Below are positions 2,287-40,894 of a stretch of 49,567 nt of DNA, piece by piece (the first letter of the stretch is position 1; each line of letters begins with the position of its first letter). The notes below the pieces were generated by a model, which did not search any database, was not told the DNA's origin, and saw only the letters and a list, made by a program, of their open reading frames with translations. This DNA comes from Escherichia phage CJ19. The DNA lies in the sequence record MT176427.1; one strand, written 5' to 3'. The translations under genes and the position numbers were made by a program.

Positions 2287-4385
2287 AAGTTACCGTCCAA
2301 TCCAAAATCCTTACGTGAGATAATATCCTCACCCTTTGCATTCTTGCGGTGAGTTACCCGCACCGGATGCGCTATGTGGTGAGCATTGTTTAAAATCATT
2401 TTCGCACTTCTGTAAGCTGCCATTAATTTTGCGATCTTACTGTCATGAACGTGAGGTAATACCCCTTTCTGCTTCCATATCGTGTGGCATACCTGTGCCG
2501 TTGACTGAGGGAAGAACTTCTCATACGCGATGAAGTTAACTCCAACTGAGTCTGTCAGGTCGTACCGATAAAGAATGCCAGTATGATTACGTGTCAGCGT
2601 GACTTCGAAACTGTTAACTGTGCACCAGTCGTTTTTGGTGTAAGCCTTACCAGTCAGGTTATCATTGGGATCTTTCAGGCTCACGTCACAGCAACGGCAT
2701 ATTCTCGCCACTACGTCATTTTCAGCGCCACATCCCTTAACAATCACCTCGCCAGTGCGATCATCAATCTGGTCTTCACATATGCGAGACTTCCAGAAAT
2801 ACTCGCAACGATTTCCGTTTTCATCTCTGTGAATGCAGCGGCGAGCGTAAAAACTGTTCTCAGTTCCGCACAGTTCACATTTTTTCGGCTCTTTCTTACC
2901 ATCAAAGCGGCGCTGGTACTGAGCCTCTTCAAGAATCGGATCAAAGTAAAGCTGACCCAGCTCGTCCATGCAACCCGCAAAATCCCATACCAGGTGATCT
3001 TCCTTCACCATTCCCATCTCTTTTTGCCACGGCTTAAGCAATCTCATACCTCGACCAAGCAACTGGATCAGCAGAGTAAGTGAACCGATTTTGCGAAGGA
3101 TTACCGAAAAATCCCAAAACGGAACGTTAACTCCAGTGGTTAGCGCCATAACCTGAAATATGTATTTTATCTCGCCACGGTTAGCCGCCTCAAGTATTGC
3201 TTGTCGCTTTTTGGTGTTAGTCTTTTCCGTAATGATCTCATAGGTGGAGCCATGTGGAAGATAGCTCGCTGCCTCCTTGCAGTGTCGCTGACCTGCGCAC
3301 GTAATCAGTACGCCATTTCGCTTTTTCGCTTCCTCTACGACCATCCCCATGATTCGCTTTGTCATGCTGGCGTTGTCATGGATTTTATTTTCCATCGCCT
3401 TCATTTCTTTCTGGCTAAAATCCGCAGTTCCGTCCTGGCTTGATGCCTTGAACTCACCAAGATCATAGCCAGCGTCACCAACACTTCCGAATATTGTTGG
3501 AACAACTGAACCGAACTCAATAAGGTAATTAGTGTCGATGTTAGTAACCTGCTCACGCCAGAACCCAGGTAACTTAGGGTTATCGACAACAATCGGAGTT
3601 GTGCCTCTGAACTCAGAACCAGTCATGCCGAAGATGCGTAATTCTTTCCCGTTCTTCTCTTTGCAGCGGCGCATCAATTCAGTGATAATGATCGTGTACT
3701 GGCTTCGCTTGGTGCCGAGAACAGGCTTGCCAGTCTTCCGTCTGATTAGCAATTGCTTATCCATCACCTGAACGCCAACTTCTACGCCGTCAAGGTATCC
3801 ATTGACATAACCTTCGCTGTTTTTCGGGTAGTCAACGAATACACGCTCACCTTTTTCAGTGAGCATCATTTCAATCGTCTCTTCGTTGTCGATGGCGGCG
3901 GCAAGGTCTTCCCAATCCACCTGGTGACATTCATCAATACCCAGCACCATAGGTGTAAAATCACCAAGCGCCTTAAACAGACCGTTTGCAACCGTTCCTT
4001 CCGAACCGACAACGATTGGGAAGTAAGCTGATTTTGTGTTCAAGCCAGCACAGTAAACTGAGTTAGGAACGCCAAAGTTTGAGATCTCCTCACTATCCTG
4101 AGCGACAATATCGCCCTGACGCGCCAGTATCATCATCGACAAGCCCATTTCTTTNACGCGCGATGCGATCATGGCAAAGCCGATCGTCTTACCTGCCGAC
4201 ACTGACGCCTTAACGATGAATGGATGCTTATAGCGAGCAATGCGCTTGCCGATCTCGTCATACATTACGCACTGATACTCATAAGGAACCATGTCGCCAA
4301 ATGTGAATTTATCCTGAATCTCTTTAATCCTCTGCGGCCCGAGGTCTTCTATCTGTTTTTTAATGGATTTAATGCGCATAGCCAT
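2283..4385 (-). CDS. SF2 DNA helicase with C-terminal Cys-rich zinc-finger region
   Basis: Walker A (SAGKTIGFA), DExH box (GIDECHQ), C-terminal CxxC clusters; promoter cassette 4423-4467 upstream; N at 4155. Confidence 0.8.
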   Translation of the reverse strand: MAMRIKSIKKQIEDLGPQRIKEIQDKFTFGDMVPYEYQCVMYDEIGKRIARYKHPFIVKASVSAGKTIGFAMIASRXKEMGLSMMILARQGDIVAQDSEEISNFGVPNSVYCAGLNTKSAYFPIVVGSEGTVANGLFKALGDFTPMVLGIDECHQVDWEDLAAAIDNEETIEMMLTEKGERVFVDYPKNSEGYVNGYLDGVEVGVQVMDKQLLIRRKTGKPVLGTKRSQYTIIITELMRRCKEKNGKELRIFGMTGSEFRGTTPIVVDNPKLPGFWREQVTNIDTNYLIEFGSVVPTIFGSVGDAGYDLGEFKASSQDGTADFSQKEMKAMENKIHDNASMTKRIMGMVVEEAKKRNGVLITCAGQRHCKEAASYLPHGSTYEIITEKTNTKKRQAILEAANRGEIKYIFQVMALTTGVNVPFWDFSVILRKIGSLTLLIQLLGRGMRLLKPWQKEMGMVKEDHLVWDFAGCMDELGQLYFDPILEEAQYQRRFDGKKEPKKCELCGTENSFYARRCIHRDENGNRCEYFWKSRICEDQIDDRTGEVIVKGCGAENDVVARICRCCDVSLKDPNDNLTGKAYTKNDWCTVNSFEVTLTRNHTGILYRYDLTDSVGVNFIAYEKFFPQSTAQVCHTIWKQKGVLPHVHDSKIAKLMAAYRSAKMILNNAHHIAHPVRVTHRKNAKGEDIISRKDFGLDGNL

Positions 4386-4422
4386 AGTATTAAATGCCTT
4401 TCATGTTCGTTCGATTGACGTT

Positions 4423-4467
4423 ATAATAACAGCCATCGAAACCAATGTTTAACAAAAAGTGCTATTG
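4423..4467 (-). promoter_or_regulatory. promoter cassette for helicase operon
   Basis: Box variant ATAGCAC-N3-TTGTTAAA at 4448-4467; -10 TGtTATTAT; leader CAATCGAACGAACATGAAAGG. Confidence 0.45.
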
Positions 4468-4477
4468 AGGTGATGAG

Positions 4478-4951
4478 ATGAATGCAGTCGACAAGCGAAC
4501 CATTAACGGCAACAACGGAACAGTCCGAACTGAAGACAAAAAGCAACGAAAACGACCTTCAGGTTACTACGTTTTAAAAGATGAAGTAAAGGCCGGGCTT
4601 CGGGCGCGACTGGAGATGGTTCTCGACTTCTACGGAACGAAGGCCAATATCGCAAAGCAACTGAAGGTTAGTCGCCAGGCGGTTGAGGAATGGTTCAAGA
4701 GGGGCATGATGTCGGCCCGAGGCGCTCAACTGGCGCACAACCGATACAAGCGAACTGGAGAGGGTTTTCGCGCGACTTTTTGCCGACCGGATCTGCAATT
4801 CGATGGCAACGGAAAGCCGCTGACACTCCGGTGCAAAAAACGTCACATGCTGCGCGTTGTTACTGAGGCTGAATTAGCTACGAAGCCAGAATGTCGATCG
4901 TGGCGCAAGATTAAGGCCGCTAACGAAGCAGCACGAAAAGCTAAAGAGTAA
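4478..4951 (+). CDS. putative HTH DNA-binding protein (Cro/YdaS-like)
   Basis: Segment IAKQLKVSRQAVEEWFKRG resembles a Cro/YdaS-type helix-turn-helix; strong RBS GAGGTGATGAG before ATG; basic protein; terminator 4956-4990 follows. Confidence 0.4.
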   Translation: MNAVDKRTINGNNGTVRTEDKKQRKRPSGYYVLKDEVKAGLRARLEMVLDFYGTKANIAKQLKVSRQAVEEWFKRGMMSARGAQLAHNRYKRTGEGFRATFCRPDLQFDGNGKPLTLRCKKRHMLRVVTEAELATKPECRSWRKIKAANEAARKAKE

Positions 4952-4955
4952 AATT

Positions 4956-4990
4956 AAGGTTGTGCCATAATCGGTGCAACCTTTTTTATT
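4956..4990 (+). terminator. intrinsic terminator
   Basis: Hairpin AAGGTTGTGCC-ATAATC-GGTGCAACCTT followed by TTTTTT. Confidence 0.6.
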
Positions 4991-5008
4991 TGTTAAGAGA
5001 TTATTTAT

Positions 5009-34102: not shown

Positions 34103-34148
34103 ACTATACAGCTACCCCGATTATGAGTTTTAACAAAAAGTGCTATCG
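34103..34148 (-). promoter_or_regulatory. early promoter cassette (ATAGCAC box + TATAGT)
   Basis: Box 34128-34148; -10 at 34103-34108 in hairpin loop; 22-bp spacer. Confidence 0.5.
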
Positions 34149-34541
34149 CTGGTGATTTCGTGCGTTCTTTTTCATTGCCGCGAAGGCGATAAAGCAGAAC
34201 ATCCCAGGCTCAGTAAATCGAAGCTTACCGTACTGGCGGCACATGCGGCGAAATTTACGCTTGTCGTTTAACACGTTAGTTACACGTTTTTCAGTCACTA
34301 CTAAGCGGCGCGGACCTTTTACAAGCACGAAAGTGACGGCTGGGCCACTTGCGAGATTCAGGTTGTACTTGCTTCCTTTCTGGACGGCGTACCATGAAAG
34401 ACCGTTATAACCATCAATGACATCAGCCACGTTCAGGTGACGGTTAGGTCGGCGCTTGGCCTCGTATACTTGACCAACCTGAAAGTAATCATTAAACAGC
34501 ATCGCTAACCCTGGATGTATTTTAACACAACGTAATTTCAT
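34143..34541 (-). CDS. hypothetical basic protein (132 aa)
   Basis: ORF in early operon; Arg/Lys-rich; no motif recognised. Confidence 0.4.
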   Translation of the reverse strand: MKLRCVKIHPGLAMLFNDYFQVGQVYEAKRRPNRHLNVADVIDGYNGLSWYAVQKGSKYNLNLASGPAVTFVLVKGPRRLVVTEKRVTNVLNDKRKFRRMCRQYGKLRFTEPGMFCFIAFAAMKKNARNHQR

Positions 34542-34543
34542 GG

Positions 34544-34702
34544 TTATTCCCCTTCGTTTTCGTCAAATTGTTGATTGTTGATCTGAGTGCGAACCTCTTT
34601 AACCATCTCTGAGAACTCATCGGCTGAGCACTGCATAGTCTGAGTCGCCAGTAGTTGCTTAAGGATTACGGCTTGCTTATCTGACAGGTTGATAGTAATC
34701 AT
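34544..34702 (-). CDS. small hypothetical protein (52 aa)
   Basis: Manually translated ORF (MITINLSDKQAVILKQLL...) with RBS GAGAGGGAAG, directly after promoter cassette 34732-34776; below ORF-track size cutoff. Confidence 0.3.
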   Translation of the reverse strand: MITINLSDKQAVILKQLLATQTMQCSADEFSEMVKEVRTQINNQQFDENEGE

Positions 34703-34731
34703 TTTGCTTCCCTCTCGTTTGGTGTGAAATA

Positions 34732-34776
34732 ACTATAACAAAACCCGCCGGAGCGGGTTTAGCAATTAGTGCTATT
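34732..34776 (-). promoter_or_regulatory. early promoter cassette (ATAGCAC box + TGTTATAGT)
   Basis: Box 34757-34776; hairpin AACCCGC/GCGGGTT in spacer; 22-bp spacer. Confidence 0.5.
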
Positions 34777-35408
34777 TACCAGGGTAATCCATCTTCCCAC
34801 TCGTAAACATCAACCTCTGTAACTGGTGAGCTAATACCGCAAGCCTCAGCCACTGCCATTACACCGCCTTCAATATCACCATTGACCAGATGCACATCAT
34901 GCTCGTTATATTTCTTGTAATCAGGAAAATGCGATTCCTTGATGCGAATGTAATCACGGCTATCGCCAGCGAAAGTCTTGCCATCCATGAACAGGCGGAC
35001 CAGGGTAACATCGTGACCATCTTCAACGAGTCGGATCACTTCGTCGGGGAAGCCGCCATCAGTGCAAACAAAGCAGAAGCCTTCATCACACAGCTGGATA
35101 TGTTCGCTCATCAATTTGCCGAACTGCTGATTGCCAAAAAGCGGCTTGACCACTGTTTCGCTAATCCAGATCATGAACTCACGGCAGGTCTTGCCACCGA
35201 GAAATTTCTGAGGCTGCTCTTTCTGATCGCGGTAGTCGTATGCGGTGATGAACTTTGAGAAAGCTCTGGCACCAAGGATGGATGCCGCAATCTCAAACAT
35301 CGGACGCTTGAAGCTGGTAGGGATGCAGTTGTAATCCGCTGCGAGCGCGTTGCCGATCGTGTCTTTACCAACCGAAGCTGGACCGTTGAGAATGATAATC
35401 TTTGACAT
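34776..35408 (-). CDS. P-loop nucleotide/polynucleotide kinase-like protein
   Basis: N-terminal P-loop GPASVGKDT resembling NMP-kinase Walker A; 210 aa. Confidence 0.5.
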   Translation of the reverse strand: MSKIIILNGPASVGKDTIGNALAADYNCIPTSFKRPMFEIAASILGARAFSKFITAYDYRDQKEQPQKFLGGKTCREFMIWISETVVKPLFGNQQFGKLMSEHIQLCDEGFCFVCTDGGFPDEVIRLVEDGHDVTLVRLFMDGKTFAGDSRDYIRIKESHFPDYKKYNEHDVHLVNGDIEGGVMAVAEACGISSPVTEVDVYEWEDGLPW

Positions 35409-35451
35409 TTTGATATTCCTGAGTAGTGGGCGCGATGTGCGCCCGTTATGG

Positions 35452-35997
35452 TTAGTTTGCTTTCTTGTCTACGCCGTGAGACTTAAGGCCGGAGTGCACG
35501 TTGTCGCCATAGTCACACACCTGATAGGTAGTGATGCCGAGGCTTCGGAAGTGCGCGATAACGCTAGGACTATCATCAAAGGCCGCAGTGATGCGGTGCA
35601 ATCCAATGTAGCGTAAAAATTCTTCCTTTATGATCGTGTCCTTGCGGTTATCATCAGCCTGGCGCATGACCAGAACGTTGTAATTAGCACCAGCATCATG
35701 CAGCCACTGCGTTGATTCCTCGACCACTGCGTCAGATCGACCAGTGAGAACGATAATGAAAGCACCGGAAGCGAACAGGCTATTCATTACGTCAATCGTT
35801 TCCTGGAATGGCTGATCGAACTTGCTCAATGAGTTAAATTCAAGCCATGACTCAGTGAGGTGCAAGTCATTTGTCGGTAGCTTGTGAAGGCGGTGCGAAC
35901 CGTCCGACAGAGTACCATCGAAATCAAATATGTAAACTTTCTTGTTTACTGCTTCCGTTTGAAGGTGATGCTTAATCATTGTGTAAAGCTGGTTCAT
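35452..35997 (-). CDS. HAD-superfamily phosphatase (putative 3-prime phosphatase)
   Basis: HAD motif I DFDGTL near N-terminus, further motifs VLTGRSD and FDDSPS; promoter cassette 36030-36075. Confidence 0.55.
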   Translation of the reverse strand: MNQLYTMIKHHLQTEAVNKKVYIFDFDGTLSDGSHRLHKLPTNDLHLTESWLEFNSLSKFDQPFQETIDVMNSLFASGAFIIVLTGRSDAVVEESTQWLHDAGANYNVLVMRQADDNRKDTIIKEEFLRYIGLHRITAAFDDSPSVIAHFRSLGITTYQVCDYGDNVHSGLKSHGVDKKAN

Positions 35998-36029
35998 TTT
36001 TAACTTCCTTTCGTGTGGTTGATGTGGGG

Positions 36030-36075
36030 ATTATACCAGTCAGGATGAATCCCCCTTTAACAAAACGTGCTATTT
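36030..36075 (-). promoter_or_regulatory. early promoter cassette (ATAGCAC box + TGGTATAAT)
   Basis: Box 36056-36075; 22-bp spacer; leader CATCAACCACACGAAAGGAAG before phosphatase ATG. Confidence 0.5.
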
Positions 36076-36876
36076 GATATAGAACTGAGCCACTACGCCA
36101 CCATCAGGATTTACTATTGCGTATGCGTCACCGAGCGTTGCATTGGCATTCATAACCTTACCAATTCTCTTTGCTTTCCATCGGTAATCGCCTTTTAAAT
36201 CAGAGATGAATGCATCTTGTGCGATATGGATAAGGCGAGGCTCGCAACCTGGCTCGCACTCATCAACTTCATAATCGTACTGGCAACCATTGATAAACGC
36301 ATTGCCGTTAACATGGTAGCAAACTGCCACCTTGCGATCGCGTGCAGATTCGCATTCACCCACCGCCCATACGTTACGATTGACATAACCGTAACCGCCG
36401 CTGCGTGGTTCCATTTTCGCGGTTGACATGGTAAGCGCCTTGCCTTCACCGAAATTGCTACCGAAAGTGAACTTGCCGTTCTTCGTCAATTCATCTGCGA
36501 CGCTGTAGGTGTCATTCTTGACGGTCTTACCTGGGCCAGTCGCAAGCTCATTCACGAACGCATCGACAGTGCTGTGACACGGATCGCCATTGTACTTAGG
36601 CAAATCCTTGAGTAATTGTTCACAGGCTTCGTGCACCAGCTTACCTACAGCTTCTTTGATTGCCTGCTCAACATGGTCAGCGATAATCGAATATGCAGAA
36701 ATTTGATGTTTTTGAGTCGATTCTAACGCCTTTAAACGCGCCTGTAACGACTCAATTTCTTGCTTATGCATATCGTAGGATACCCACCGACCATCGTCGC
36801 AGGCTTGCATTCTGACGCCGTGAATGTTAACGCTGGTTGCTACTGCTACAGGATTAAAACGGTTGATGCTGTTCAT
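36070..36876 (-). CDS. hypothetical Cys-rich protein (268 aa)
   Basis: ORF with C-terminal Cys cluster (CQYDYEVDECEPGCEP); promoter cassette 36918-36963. Confidence 0.4.
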   Translation of the reverse strand: MNSINRFNPVAVATSVNIHGVRMQACDDGRWVSYDMHKQEIESLQARLKALESTQKHQISAYSIIADHVEQAIKEAVGKLVHEACEQLLKDLPKYNGDPCHSTVDAFVNELATGPGKTVKNDTYSVADELTKNGKFTFGSNFGEGKALTMSTAKMEPRSGGYGYVNRNVWAVGECESARDRKVAVCYHVNGNAFINGCQYDYEVDECEPGCEPRLIHIAQDAFISDLKGDYRWKAKRIGKVMNANATLGDAYAIVNPDGGVVAQFYIK

Positions 36877-36917
36877 GTGTGATTCCTCAGTTGATTTGTG
36901 TTCACTTGACAGGAGAC

Positions 36918-36963
36918 ACTATATCTAATGTCTCCGAGCAAGTTTTAACAAAAAGTGCTATTC
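36918..36963 (-). promoter_or_regulatory. early promoter cassette (ATAGCAC box + TATAGT)
   Basis: Box 36943-36963; hairpin GGAGACA/TGTCTCC with -10 in loop. Confidence 0.5.
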
Positions 36964-37176
36964 AATGACTCCGGCGCTAATTGCCGTCTCAAGTGTGACG
37001 TACTGCTTAGCCGTCAGCGATGAGTTATAGGTAAAGATGCCAGCCTGGATGCCCTTTACCAACTGATCCTGCGTGATGCCTGAGATGTTAATAATCCCGT
37101 ATCCGCCACCAGTACGCAGGACGACACCTCCGACCGCGCAAAATTCAATGCCTTTACTGTTAGTGTAGACTTGCAT
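36958..37176 (-). CDS. hypothetical Gly-rich protein (72 aa)
   Basis: ORF in early operon. Confidence 0.3.
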   Translation of the reverse strand: MQVYTNSKGIEFCAVGGVVLRTGGGYGIINISGITQDQLVKGIQAGIFTYNSSLTAKQYVTLETAISAGVIE

Positions 37177-37178
37177 GA

Positions 37179-37358
37179 TTATTGCTCCTTCAACTTTTTG
37201 TAGGCGCCTTTAACCACTCCTAACGCAATGGCAATGGGCCAGATAGCGGCAACGATCACCATGTCGTACCAGTTGTTATCACTATTGCTAACGTCTTTTG
37301 CAATTGCGTAAACAGGAAGTGCGCCCAGGATGTAAAGCACGATGCATAAAATAATCAT
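37179..37358 (-). CDS. small membrane protein
   Basis: Two hydrophobic helices; start moved to internal Met (MIILCIV) overlapping upstream stop. Confidence 0.3.
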   Translation of the reverse strand: MIILCIVLYILGALPVYAIAKDVSNSDNNWYDMVIVAAIWPIAIALGVVKGAYKKLKEQ

Positions 37359-37718
37359 AAGTAACTCTTCCCTACAGTTTCGCCAACTTCTCGTGATGCC
37401 TTTAATTTGTTCCAGTAGTCGAACGGGCCGACTGGCTCCCATGAGTTAGGCTTGCCTGGATCGTTCCACCAACCAAGAACTGCTTCGCTACCGTAACATG
37501 AGTTCATTGGCTTTCCGCTACTGAAATAGCTTTTGAATACTCGATCAAGCTCGTCACCACCAACCTTGATTGAACTATTATTAAATTCAGTGCCATCAAA
37601 GAACCCCCCCCACAACGATCGGATATGATCCGGGATCTCGTGGGTTTGTCTCTTTCTCGTGGAGCTTGGTATAATCAAGGTCTGCGTAAATTGATGGGTT
37701 AAGTAAACGTACTTTCAT
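37355..37718 (-). CDS. hypothetical protein interrupted by frameshift in C8 homopolymer
   Basis: ATG at 37718 with RBS and promoter cassette 37762-37807 opens a frame that stops at about 37596; the ORF-track frame (37355-37678) continues from the poly-C run at 37604-37611; both frames encode Gly-Gly across the run. Confidence 0.35.
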
Positions 37719-37761
37719 TTGTGAATCCTCTGTTATTGGTTGTATCTGCTTCAATAAGGCC

Positions 37762-37807
37762 ACTATATCAAATGGCCTTGCGGAAGGTTTAACGATTAGT
37801 GCTATTT
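37762..37807 (-). promoter_or_regulatory. early promoter cassette (ATAGCAC box + TGATATAGT)
   Basis: Box 37788-37807; hairpin AAGGCCA/TGGCCTT with -10 in loop. Confidence 0.5.
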
Positions 37808-37896
37808 AACCACCACCAGGATAATCATCACCAGGAACAGAAGCACCCAGGATAACCCGAAAAGAAGCAATTGCAGCACGTCAACTAATTTGAACT

Positions 37897-38115
37897 TCAT
37901 AGCACTTCAACCTCATCCTCTGCAAATGGCCAGTCGCCCGGTGCCATTCCTTTTTTGCTGAGCGCCGGAAGGAAGTCAGCGTCAACCATGTAAAATGGTT
38001 CAAGCCCTTCTTCCTGGTATTTCCAGGCCATCGCTACCACTGGCAGCTTGCTTTTATCCACTCCGCTATATGGTGACTTGATAATGCGGATCTTAACCAT
38101 TTCTTCATTGTTCAT
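37897..38115 (-). CDS. hypothetical acidic protein
   Basis: ORF-track frame 37897-38157; start uncertain (Met15 or Met20). Confidence 0.3.
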   Translation of the reverse strand: MNNEEMVKIRIIKSPYSGVDKSKLPVVAMAWKYQEEGLEPFYMVDADFLPALSKKGMAPGDWPFAEDEVEVL

Positions 38116-38329
38116 TGTGGCGCTCCATGTAGTCAGCCATTTTGATAAGGTGTTCACCCATTGCGCGGACTGTTGTCGACTCCCTCATGGGGAACGCTCC
38201 TGATTCGTGTTCAATCACCATCTCGACGGTTACAACTCCCAGCGTCTTTCTCGTGTAAATGCAGCAAGAATCACCATCTGAATCGTTAAATATCTTGCTT
38301 TCTTTCTTAATTTCATAATCGTTAATCAT
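38105..38329 (-). CDS. hypothetical protein (74 aa), possible distant member of the small-paralog family
   Basis: ATGA overlap with upstream paralog; C-terminal helix VRAMGEHLIKMADYME loosely resembles family helix. Confidence 0.35.
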   Translation of the reverse strand: MINDYEIKKESKIFNDSDGDSCCIYTRKTLGVVTVEMVIEHESGAFPMRESTTVRAMGEHLIKMADYMERHNEQ

Positions 38330-38553
38330 ACAATACCCTTATCAGCTCTGTGTGCAGCTTCAATCAGATACGCAGCTAACTGGCGAGCCTGGTCTGGCGT
38401 GTACAGCATGTAACTACTTGGGTATGATTCTTCGTGAGGGTTGAAGTCAAGGCGCACCTTGAAAGTCACCTTGTCATTGCTATGAATCTTCACAGCCTCA
38501 ATTTCGGCCTGCTCGTTGTAGTCGTCTGCGATGCGTACGGCGGTTGTGCTCAT
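38326..38553 (-). CDS. small paralog family member P1 (75 aa)
   Basis: C-terminal motif YTPDQARQLAAYLIEAA shared with 39113-39334 and 39331-39537; promoter cassette 38593-38638. Confidence 0.5.
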   Translation of the reverse strand: MSTTAVRIADDYNEQAEIEAVKIHSNDKVTFKVRLDFNPHEESYPSSYMLYTPDQARQLAAYLIEAAHRADKGIV

Positions 38554-38592
38554 AAATTACCCCTTAGTTGATTGTTTCACTTCAATGAGTGC

Positions 38593-38638
38593 ACTATAGC
38601 AAATGCACTCACGGCAGTTTTAACAAAAAGTGCTATCG
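38593..38638 (-). promoter_or_regulatory. early promoter cassette (ATAGCAC box + TGCTATAGT)
   Basis: Box 38618-38638; hairpin TGAGTGCA/TGCACTCA with -10 in loop; drives paralog P1. Confidence 0.5.
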
Positions 38639-38923
38639 TTCATCTTCTCTGGAGCATCCCTTGCCGCAACCATGGCGACCAACTTCCACGATCCCGACAC
38701 CGCTTAAGCCGATGTATTCCTGACCAGTGTCCTTATCGGTGATGACGTATATCGCTCTGACGTTCTCATATGCCAGTTCATCCCTGAACTCCTGAATCTT
38801 CACAACCTGGACGCGATCGTTGACATTCACTTGCATCTTCTGCCGAGCCTCTGAATCTACACGGGTGCTTCCGAAATCACATCCAGCCAGTGCTAGGGCT
38901 GCAATTAAGATTAACTTTTTCAT
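38633..38923 (-). CDS. small lipoprotein (96 aa)
   Basis: Signal peptide with lipobox (LALAGC); C-terminal Cys pair. Confidence 0.55.
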   Translation of the reverse strand: MKKLILIAALALAGCDFGSTRVDSEARQKMQVNVNDRVQVVKIQEFRDELAYENVRAIYVITDKDTGQEYIGLSGVGIVEVGRHGCGKGCSREDER

Positions 38924-39120
38924 TCTACCACCTTCAATACTTTCTCTTTGCGATGCGGTGCGCCGGACTTATGCAGCCAGTAGCGAGCCTGGGATAACTG
39001 GCTGGTGTGCCCAACCGTAACCAACCAGAACAGGGCTACCCTTTTCTGGATTGCATACCACTTGACCGGATGACAGAAGGCCGTAGTCGTGTCAATCAAT
39101 GCGATCCTGAATTTACTCAT
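38920..39120 (-). CDS. hypothetical protein
   Basis: ORF-track frame 38920-39177; start moved to Met20 (MSKFRIA) just after upstream stop. Confidence 0.3.
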   Translation of the reverse strand: MSKFRIALIDTTTAFCHPVKWYAIQKRVALFWLVTVGHTSQLSQARYWLHKSGAPHRKEKVLKVVE

Positions 39121-39334
39121 CACCTTCTTCTTCCTCCACTTCCTCAGCCGCTTTGATGAGTGCCGCCGCCAGTTCACGAGCCTGCTCTGCTGTGTAGGTC
39201 ATGCCAGCGCCGTCTGCCTGCGAATCTGGCGCGAGGTCCAGGTGCACGCGCTTGCGCATCTTGCCAAATGGAACCTTGATTACTGAGATTTCCGTTTCCT
39301 GATTCCATGATGAATTGACTCGAATATCTCTCAT
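39113..39334 (-). CDS. small paralog family member P2 (73 aa)
   Basis: C-terminal motif YTAEQARELAAALIKAAEE plus poly-acidic tail; ATGA overlap with P3. Confidence 0.5.
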   Translation of the reverse strand: MRDIRVNSSWNQETEISVIKVPFGKMRKRVHLDLAPDSQADGAGMTYTAEQARELAAALIKAAEEVEEEEGDE

Positions 39335-39537
39335 TGCTTTTCAGCCTCTTCTGCTGCCAGGATAAGCGCCGCCGCCAGCTTGCGTGCTTGCTCTGGTGTG
39401 TAGTGCATCATGGTAACGCCCTGATCGTCAGTATCGAAGTCAATGGAGACTACGGCCTTGACTACTCCAGTCCGATTGAGCAGAACGCTAACCTCGGCAT
39501 CATCACCAACCACATCCTCAATGCGTAAAATTTCCAT
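39331..39537 (-). CDS. small paralog family member P3 (68 aa)
   Basis: C-terminal motif YTPEQARKLAAALILAAEEAE. Confidence 0.5.
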   Translation of the reverse strand: MEILRIEDVVGDDAEVSVLLNRTGVVKAVVSIDFDTDDQGVTMMHYTPEQARKLAAALILAAEEAEKQ

Positions 39538-39539
39538 AA

Positions 39540-39754
39540 TTATTTCCCCTCCGCTTCGTCTGCTGCAAGGATTAATGCCGCCGCTAACTTGCGGGCCGCG
39601 TCAGGTGAGTATTGCATCAGCGTTTGACAGTCGGAGTAACCGTCAGGATCGAATTCAAGGTTGACAACATGCCCGCGAACGGTTCCCATCGTGACGCTGA
39701 CCCCTCTGCTTGTTCAAAGTGAACATCGTCAATGCGTACAGTTTACATAATCAT
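39540..39754 (-). pseudogene. decayed fourth copy of the small paralog family (P4)
   Basis: Manual translation: ATG ATT ATG TAA (stop at codon 4), then TVRIDDVHFEQAEG in one frame and VSVTMGTVRGHVVNLEFDPDGYSDCQTLMQYSPDAARKLAAALILAADEAEGK in another; intact promoter cassette 39779-39824 and RBS. Confidence 0.45.
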
Positions 39755-39778
39755 TTCCTCTTCGTTGTTGATAGGGTA

Positions 39779-39824
39779 ATCATAGCTGACTACCCGATTT
39801 GTTGTTTAGCAATTCGTGCTATTC
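39779..39824 (-). promoter_or_regulatory. early promoter cassette (ATAGCAC box + TATGAT)
   Basis: Box 39805-39824; 22-bp spacer; drives decayed P4 and P3-P2 operon. Confidence 0.45.
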
Positions 39825-40373
39825 ACCGTTCAGGAGAGTTTTCGCTTTCCGGTAGAACTGGATGGCCTTCTCCACCTCATCGGCATCATAGCCATGGATG
39901 GTTGGCGGCTTAATCGGCTCAACGTAGTGAGAGCGTGGCGCATCAGATCGGTACTGACTGCACCAGCTGTACACGTCTCGCTCATGCATTCCCGCCAGGG
40001 CTGGATGCACAAATATCTTGTCGCCAATCCGGCAGATGATTCCGGCGTCCTGGAGTGACGGCAGGATGTTATTGCTCAGGTCATTGTATATGCCATCACG
40101 TCCGACGAATGGTATGACCTCTCTGATTTGTCTGTATAGCTGGCTCACACAAACCATTCCGGTATTGCCGCATAAGCGCTTAATCTTATGCACCACGACG
40201 CCGTATTTGTAACTCAGCTTGACGCACGACATCTCTTCGGAGCTTGACCAATATTTGAAGGTGTCGCGATAGCCATTTGCACTGATCGCAACCTTAAGCG
40301 GTGACATGCCGCTTTCACTGGCTTCATTGAATATCTGCTCGCCTGTCATTCTTTCGCTCCCGAAGTAACTCAT
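39819..40373 (-). CDS. hypothetical protein sharing N- and C-terminal modules with the 527-aa ATPase
   Basis: SPLKVAISANGYR and ICRIGDKIFVHPALAG match PPLRVAINANGYR and TCLIGDKIYINPRLLG of 44541-46124. Confidence 0.5.
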   Translation of the reverse strand: MSYFGSERMTGEQIFNEASESGMSPLKVAISANGYRDTFKYWSSSEEMSCVKLSYKYGVVVHKIKRLCGNTGMVCVSQLYRQIREVIPFVGRDGIYNDLSNNILPSLQDAGIICRIGDKIFVHPALAGMHERDVYSWCSQYRSDAPRSHYVEPIKPPTIHGYDADEVEKAIQFYRKAKTLLNGE

Positions 40374-40894
40374 TATTTGGTTTCCTTAATCATTTCATGG
40401 TAGCGAGCCAGGGCAATGAGCGCACCTTCTTTCTGCTCACCTTGCAGGTCGATAACGTTCGGTGTGATCTTGAGCAGCCGAGACTTGAACCTTTCAACGA
40501 TTACCGCCTCCTTTTCCTCGTCACCCTTGCGTCGTGTTCCGGCCTGGATAGCACCATCAACCAGGGTGATGTAAGCACATCGAACATCGACATCATCCCC
40601 GAAGTCGCCATCCTTGATTGACAGCTTGGCCCGAACGTTCGCCGCCTGAATCTCTGGCATCCTGGCAACCGTGTTAGAGACGTACGAGGCTTTCAGCTTT
40701 GCAACGCTGTACTTACCGCCAGCCTCAAGGTCGTCGGCATTGATTCTGCCCATATCATCAGCCGTGAGTCCGTACATCTGGCGAGCTATCAGGTGGATTG
40801 GAACGTGGTAACTTCGGTTCTCGGACTTGAGCGCTTGCTCCGCCATGTAGCGGACGACATCTCCCAGGCTTACGGATTGATTATGATTTGACAT
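40373..40894 (-). CDS. hypothetical protein (173 aa)
   Basis: First leftward gene after the 40895-41612 control region. Confidence 0.4.
   Translation of the reverse strand: MSNHNQSVSLGDVVRYMAEQALKSENRSYHVPIHLIARQMYGLTADDMGRINADDLEAGGKYSVAKLKASYVSNTVARMPEIQAANVRAKLSIKDGDFGDDVDVRCAYITLVDGAIQAGTRRKGDEEKEAVIVERFKSRLLKITPNVIDLQGEQKEGALIALARYHEMIKETK

Follow-up and report, generated by a model that had tools for sequence, protein, structure and literature searches.

A Four-Copy Early-Gene Family in Phage CJ19

The window analyzed here is the whole 49,567-nt stretch of DNA from Escherichia phage CJ19 (sequence record MT176427.1). It is of the T1-like siphovirus type (Drexlerviridae, Nouzillyvirus type) and is ~87–92% identical to the phages TH21, 50EP, p111, P817, and XT34. 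Our analysis concerns a broken gene that sits in an early-gene cluster on the minus strand. We searched the six-frame translation of the window with a 69-member profile of the family, built without the broken copy, and this search identified exactly four family members. The same four copies were recovered by a repeat search through their helix-coding segment (family D1). An initial annotation of the sequence had counted four paralogs, and both searches return this number and no more. The features of the locus are the following (positions in the window):

39779..39824, minus strand: early promoter cassette, with ATAGCAC at 39822-39816, a -35-like element (TTGCTA/TAAACA) at 39812-39803 and a -10 element (TATGAT) at 39784-39779
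39756..39760, minus strand: Shine-Dalgarno-like GAGGA; the spacing from its GAGG is 8 nt to the second ATG and 2 nt to the first
39743..39754, minus strand: ATG ATT ATG TAA, with the likely start at 39748-39746 and a premature TAA at 39745-39743
39701..39742, minus strand: N-terminal remnant in the frame of the start codon (codons 3-16, TVRIDDVHFEQAEG), including D12E (A at 39713)
39701..39704, minus strand: GGGG run holding a 2-nt GG duplication; seven of seven other aligned sequences lack the two G
39540..39701, minus strand: C-terminal part in a second frame (VSVTMG...ADEAEGK*), with the natural stop TAA at 39542-39540
39540..39689, minus strand: predicted 49-aa open reading frame (ORF) from internal Met20 (ATG 39689-39687), a mechanical gene call
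39331..39537, minus strand: intact paralog 2, 68 aa (ORF list; phrog_13316, E = 7e-18; profile search)
39113..39334, minus strand: intact paralog 3, 73 aa (ORF list, PHROGs, profile search)
39177-38920, minus strand: intact ORF of 85 aa (or 66 aa) (ORF list)
38923-38633, minus strand: intact lipoprotein-like ORF (ORF list)
38326..38553, minus strand: intact paralog 4, 75 aa, behind the next promoter cassette (~38638-38576) (ORF list, PHROGs, repeats, profile search)

The genes of this array are tightly packed: paralog 2 starts 2 nt after the stop of the broken copy, and its ribosome-binding site (GGAGGGG) lies inside the last codons of the broken copy. The array region is highly mosaic and composed of accessory genes.

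All four copies were assigned to the PHROGs family phrog_13316, whose function is unknown. When the broken copy was repaired in silico, it matched this family over its full length (residues 1-66; E = 6.5e-9) and the three intact paralogs matched it as well. The repaired copy is 88–94% identical to intact 68-aa proteins of related phages, which occupy the same position directly behind the same promoter cassette. The window copy differs from these in that it cannot encode the protein, since its codon 2 is a stop and its frame shifts by +2 at codon 16.

We modeled the closest intact ortholog with AlphaFold2 from a 69-sequence alignment (pLDDT 88, pTM 0.72). The predicted fold consists of three strands (residues 4-7, 13-22, and 25-31) followed by a helix (residues 48-66). 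Foldseek yielded no significant match in the PDB (best E = 0.66) and only uncharacterized phage proteins in BFVD, and the sequence search of the PDB returned no relative at E < 0.7. In Pfam, the only matches were below threshold: DUF6907 and TA_inhibitor (T7 Gp4.5) showed a weak likeness around the C-terminal helix (E = 0.02–0.17), with 12.9–15.5 bits against curated cut-offs of 26–27. These scores are far below the cut-offs and thus give no evidence of membership in either family. Paralog 3 matched PF17574, the T7 Gp4.5 toxin-antitoxin inhibitor, at E = 0.021 (15.3 bits, with the cut-off at 27); this similarity is probably noise, though it is the sole functional hint for the family. Our literature search on phage CJ19 and phrog_13316 found nothing useful.

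An Intact Promoter and Ribosome-Binding Site

The broken copy had initially been described as retaining an intact promoter and ribosome-binding site, with the promoter cassette directly upstream. Our comparison agrees with this description: the cassette is present, a promoter consensus scan matched it as TAAACA-18-TATGAT, and it is nearly identical to the cassette of the intact orthologous loci. The Shine-Dalgarno-like GAGGA is invariant in all six aligned loci.

The next promoter cassette downstream is found only at ~38638-38576. The promoter that precedes the broken copy is therefore predicted to transcribe four intact downstream genes as well, namely paralogs 2 and 3, the 85-aa (or 66-aa) ORF, and the lipoprotein-like ORF. 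We attribute the unchanged state of the promoter and ribosome-binding site to this continued service of four intact genes and to a recent inactivation of the first one.

The core of this cassette (ATAGCACnnnTTGnTAAA ... TATGAT; families D3 and D4) is repeated in at least seven minus-strand copies between 34 and 40 kb (~34126-39827). The copies are located at 39827-39804, 38638-38616, 37810-37787, 36966-36941, 36075-36053, 34780-34757, and 34148-34126. Three of them lie within a longer 61-nt repeat with an inverted repeat (families D2-D4), possibly a terminator-promoter unit.

Two Lesions Disrupt the Reading Frame

From 39760 downward, the minus strand reads GAGGAA ATG ATT ATG TAA ACT GTA CGC, so that positions 39754-39743 are ATG ATT ATG TAA, exactly as first read. 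The premature TAA is indeed present, but it had been placed at codon 4, counting from the first ATG, whereas from the likely start at the second ATG it replaces codon 2 (Glu). We count it as codon 2 because GAGG precedes the second ATG by 8 nt and because most gene calls for the orthologs, which are 67–68 aa long, begin METVRIDD.

The locus was aligned with its counterparts in XT34, GaoY1-9D, ETEP102, and one IMG/VR contig, all of which encode intact proteins of 67–70 aa. A comparison with related phages had been proposed as a check, and it revealed intact single frames in the relatives against two lesions in the window copy. Only two changes are disabling relative to the intact orthologs. The first is a nonsense substitution, GAA>TAA, in which T at 39745 replaces the G of the Glu2 codon (ATGGAA in the intact orthologs). 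The second is a 2-nt insertion, a GG duplication at 39704-39701 (GAGGTC>GAGGGGTC) that causes a +2 frameshift at codon 16. The frameshift reported in the initial annotation can thus be specified as a 2-nt duplication relative to every ortholog aligned. As a consequence of the TAA at codon 2 and the +2 shift at codon 16, the broken locus offers no uninterrupted ORF for the whole domain.

The remnants of the protein are distributed over two frames. The frame of the ATG translates as MIM*TVRIDDVHFEQAEGSASRWEPFAG..., with family similarity ending after EQAEG, and the frame from 39701 translates as VSVTMGTVRGHVVNLEFDPDGYSDCQTLMQYSPDAARKLAAALILAADEAEGK*. The family profile matched the C-terminal frame (39543-39713) with E = 2e-29 over profile positions 16-67 and the N-terminal frame (39620-39742) with E = 7.6e-4 over positions 3-19; given these two values, the similarity in both frames is far beyond chance. 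Searches by tblastn with the orthologs of 50EP, TH21, and XT34 split across the same two frames. The conserved C-terminal half had been reported in a different frame, and the peptides and coordinates given for it are reproduced here.

When the two G are removed and the stop is ignored, the translation becomes M*TVRIDDVHFEQAEVSVTMGTVRGH..., which shares 94% identity with P0001, the intact protein closest to it. A codon-by-codon comparison with nine full-length orthologous alleles identified four changes unique to the CJ19 copy: E2*, D12E, the GG insertion, and D31E. In the 69-sequence family alignment, conservation is at least 90% at both D12 and D31.

The Nonsense Allele Is Shared with Another Phage

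It had been left undecided whether the locus is a gene in decay or a product of base errors in the assembly. We found the same ATG TAA ACT in an ENA metagenome contig (L012; ERZ25038531), which does not carry the GG insertion. This contig differs from the window at only 9 of 555 positions (1.6%) in the upstream 184-aa gene and at 0 of 70 positions in the intergenic region that contains the promoter and the ribosome-binding site. Codons 1–19 contain two substitutions in addition to the GG, and from codon 20 to the stop the difference rises to 25 of 150 positions (16.7%). This step in divergence points to a recombination breakpoint inside the gene, such that the 5' segment, including the TAA, is common to both phages by descent. 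On this evidence, the nonsense allele is natural and older than the split of the CJ19 and L012 phages. The coverage of this contig is low (cov 0.28 in the record name), and an identical error at the same base is very unlikely. Exact-pattern scans of IMG/VR and of JGI metagenomes did not detect the stop allele; they returned a single intact locus, in IMG/VR.

Along the comparison of the two sequences (window 40430-39540), the small gene contains a sharp mosaic boundary. The paralog array appears to be a recombination hot spot.

We then assessed the window as a whole by screening it with the annotated coding sequences (CDSs) of 50EP and XT34, since tblastn with all ORFs proved too noisy owing to antisense ORFs. 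Clean full-length matches were obtained for 137 of these 159 CDSs and frame breaks were present in only two genes; the remaining CDSs were absent, diverged, or cut by the window ends. Besides the broken copy, only one of the ~70 genes shared with relatives thus has a frame break, which suggests that the assembly is generally sound. The window also contains 37 runs of A or T of 6–8 nt, and the CDS screen revealed no frame breaks apart from those in the two genes.

Judging from these sequences, the TAA stop does not appear to be an assembly error. Of the two initial options, decay is favored by the recurrence of the TAA in an independent contig, by the exact definition of two lesions, and by the clean gene set of the window. 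We consider it likely that the locus is a genuine and evolutionarily young pseudogene, the first of four paralogous small early genes (phrog_13316, 67–75 aa).

The dN/dS of the repaired CJ19 copy relative to its orthologs is ~0.1–0.5 and cannot be distinguished from that of intact pairs, the sequence being short and the event recent. This similarity to intact pairs indicates that most of the divergence is older than the inactivation. The order of events can be tentatively proposed. A G>T substitution would first have turned Glu2 (GAA) into TAA in an ancestor common to at least one other sampled phage. With the constraint gone, two Asp>Glu replacements at conserved positions and, at codon 16, the GG duplication would subsequently have arisen in the CJ19 lineage. 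A ribosome that begins at the native start would stop after Met (after Met-Ile-Met from the first ATG), presumably with no full-length protein produced. The gene is presumably dispensable. In itself, such a recent pseudogene among the arrayed accessory genes of a lytic phage carries little weight: the kind is well known, and this instance is new but ordinary.

Other Broken Alleles and the Possible Role of Selection

Intact orthologs were found in XT34, GaoY1-9D, 50EP, TH21, the IMG/VR contig, and ~115 protein clusters. The 119 homolog clusters are nearly all 66–90 aa long and few are shorter. In 22 NCBI isolate genomes, the ortholog appears as one unbroken match over residues 1-48 or 4-48, with the C-terminal helix masked by the low-complexity filter. 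An intact 67-aa member also lies behind an upstream gene 89% identical to that of the window (contig L020).

Three short homologs were traced to DNA, one of which is the L012 contig described above. The second (L010; Logan SRR14202220, a 28-kb contig whose upstream gene is 94% identical to that of the window) contains one extra A at codon 2/3 (GGAAAC>GGAAAAC). The third (L011; Logan SRR31021175, a 48.5-kb contig in which the upstream gene is a different one) contains a 1-nt deletion near codon 31. In all three contigs, the genes on either side are intact. The inactivating events therefore comprise the TAA (CJ19 and L012), the extra A (L010), the GG insertion (CJ19), and the 1-nt deletion (L011). 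These broken alleles were found through callable ORFs of 49 or 42 aa, which biases their detection toward 5' lesions.

We rejected the possibility that a CJ19-type upstream gene (184 aa) invariably comes with a broken copy, since the family member is intact in L020 and absent from another scaffold with this type of gene (L018; ENA ERZ28579282 scaffold_246). In the latter (positions 3058-5000), the upstream gene of 185 aa is 96% identical and is followed by a similar promoter cassette. The genes behind this cassette encode 75, 52, 47, 159, and 276 aa, which illustrates module replacement at this position, and no phrog_13316 member was identified among the genes that follow the upstream gene within the 5.6-kb locus.

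Across these data sets, the gene thus appears to be intact in most cases and missing in some, and to have been inactivated on at least three separate occasions, with at least two other assemblies carrying independent lesions. Such a distribution is consistent with an accessory gene that T1-like phages can do without and have lost repeatedly from a mosaic region. That related phages have lost this gene independently is of modest interest as a small population-level hint, and this recurrence may reflect counter-selection.

The breakage could have been adaptive if the protein were sensed by a host defense or were costly in some hosts, so that its loss was selected. This scenario is about the cause of the pseudogene and does not conflict with its being a young one. 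In line with a role of selection, a single 207-nt gene was inactivated at least three times independently in four data sets with intact flanking genes, and a further relative, whose upstream gene is of the same type, lacks it altogether. A precedent is offered by Gp54 of phage Bas11, a 66-aa non-essential early protein of Drexlerviridae that triggers CapRelSJ46 and is lost in escape mutants by premature stop, promoter mutations, or deletions (PMC11578894). Both cases involve a small early non-essential protein of Drexlerviridae, and Gp54 shows that such genes can be inactivated recurrently. However, no defense system is known to sense phrog_13316, phrog_13316 is not Gp54, and the neutral loss of a redundant paralog fits the data equally well. 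We view an adaptive origin of the breakage as rather unlikely.

We also asked whether phrog_13316 corresponds to the CapRel trigger itself, and this was rejected. Gp54 is an all-beta barrel with the key residues W43 and W53 (PMC11578894), whereas three strands and a C-terminal helix are predicted for phrog_13316. No homology was found between the two: there was no sequence match in the PDB and no Foldseek match in the PDB with E < 0.6.

A more specific version of the adaptive scenario would be that inactivation at the 5' end was repeatedly selected: a defense would sense the full-length protein, and phages would escape it, possibly while keeping a partly functional C-terminal fragment of 49 aa. 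We regard this proposal as doubtful. If true, phrog_13316 would be a candidate family of defense triggers, of counter-defense proteins, or of both in Drexlerviridae. The pattern of loss does match that of non-essential proteins that interact with defenses (triggers or inhibitors), and the intact orthologs are reasonable candidates for screens on defense-carrying hosts.

Alternative Explanations of the Broken Frame

A different possibility is that the nonsense codon is real and that the GG insertion alone is a base-calling error, in which case the true CJ19 allele would resemble that of L012 with the stop as its sole lesion. Indeed, L012 carries the TAA without the GG, and the other frame break of the window also results from an extra G, in an 8-G run. 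Against this, a lesion located past a stop at codon 2 is selectively neutral, such that a real insertion is equally expected, and replication slippage producing a tandem duplication would readily explain the change from GG to GGGG. Nothing counters an error directly, and we judge it unlikely that the insertion is one. Such an error would leave the pseudogene conclusion unchanged, since the gene is disabled by the stop at codon 2 in any case.

The lesions might also have converted the gene instead of killing it, if a functional truncated protein of 49 aa were translated from Met20, either from the Shine-Dalgarno-like GAGGGG located 11 nt upstream of its ATG or by re-initiation. An internal-Met product had been proposed initially; the ORF is present, but the ORF list gives 49 aa rather than 50. 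Given the GAGGGG at 11 nt, some initiation at Met20 is conceivable, and re-initiation at this codon after the mini-ORF may be possible, with weak support. It is notable for this scenario that the lesions of CJ19, L010, and L012 are all upstream of Met20 and that the 49-aa ORF is intact in all three, that gene callers report this ORF, and that the GG insertion extends the Shine-Dalgarno-like GAGG to GAGGGG. However, the position of the lesions is subject to ascertainment bias, since these alleles were found because the 49-aa ORF is callable, and the lesion of L011 destroys the C-terminal part instead. Met20 is not conserved (GaoY1-9D, P0003, and P0004 lack it) and a spacing of 11–13 nt is poor for initiation. 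Of the three predicted strands, the fragment would be missing the first entirely and the second for the most part, along with the nearly invariant N-terminal residues D8, D12, E15, and V16. The product had been described as containing only the conserved helix, which does not hold, as the predicted fold would keep strand 3 in addition to the helix. Overall, a functional product from Met20 seems improbable.

The 49-aa ORF is 100% identical to a database protein (P0054), the hypothetical protein CJ19_060 of Escherichia phage CJ19. On our preferred reading of the locus as a young pseudogene, this entry represents part of a broken gene, and its annotation should identify it as a pseudogene remnant.

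It is very unlikely that both lesions are sequencing or assembly errors and that the phage truly carries an intact 68-aa gene. Both frame breaks of the window consist of extra G's in G runs (GG>GGGG in the broken copy and 8 G at 37604-37611), which would also fit homopolymer errors of the kind that some platforms produce, and the remainder of the gene is well conserved. However, the TAA is a substitution and not a homopolymer error, and it recurs in the independent L012 contig (9/555 differences from the window in the upstream gene and 0/70 in the intergenic region). The growth of a G run from two to four is untypical of a homopolymer miscall, 137 of 159 genes of the relatives are clean in a window with 37 A or T runs of 6–8 nt, and a relaxed constraint would be in keeping with D12E and D31E, which are unique to the CJ19 copy.

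Finally, programmed recoding (stop read-through or ribosomal frameshifting) that would restore the full-length protein has nothing in its favor other than the G run at the frame junction and is effectively refuted. The orthologs are read in a single frame and carry neither the stop nor the GG. Translation of the window copy would have to be recoded on two separate occasions, once past a UAA that is the second codon. The window yielded neither a phage tRNA gene nor a suppressor, the local RNA fold at the locus is unremarkable (z = 0.33), and no Rfam match in the whole window reached any threshold.

A Second Split Early Gene

The other frame break of the window affects a second early gene, which is split over two frames (37355-37763, minus strand). 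This gene is a homolog of proteins of 126–129 aa in 50EP (CDS 40134-40523), TH21, and XT34. It could be either a second pseudogene or the result of a homopolymer sequencing error: the break falls in the 8-G run (C8 on the plus strand, 37604-37611), which is the longest G/C homopolymer of the window, and a run of seven G would bring the two frames together (…PIVVGGFFDGTEF…). Immediately downstream, the alignment with 50EP and TH21 contains a gap of 26 columns, which we read as an in-frame loss of ~24 nt.
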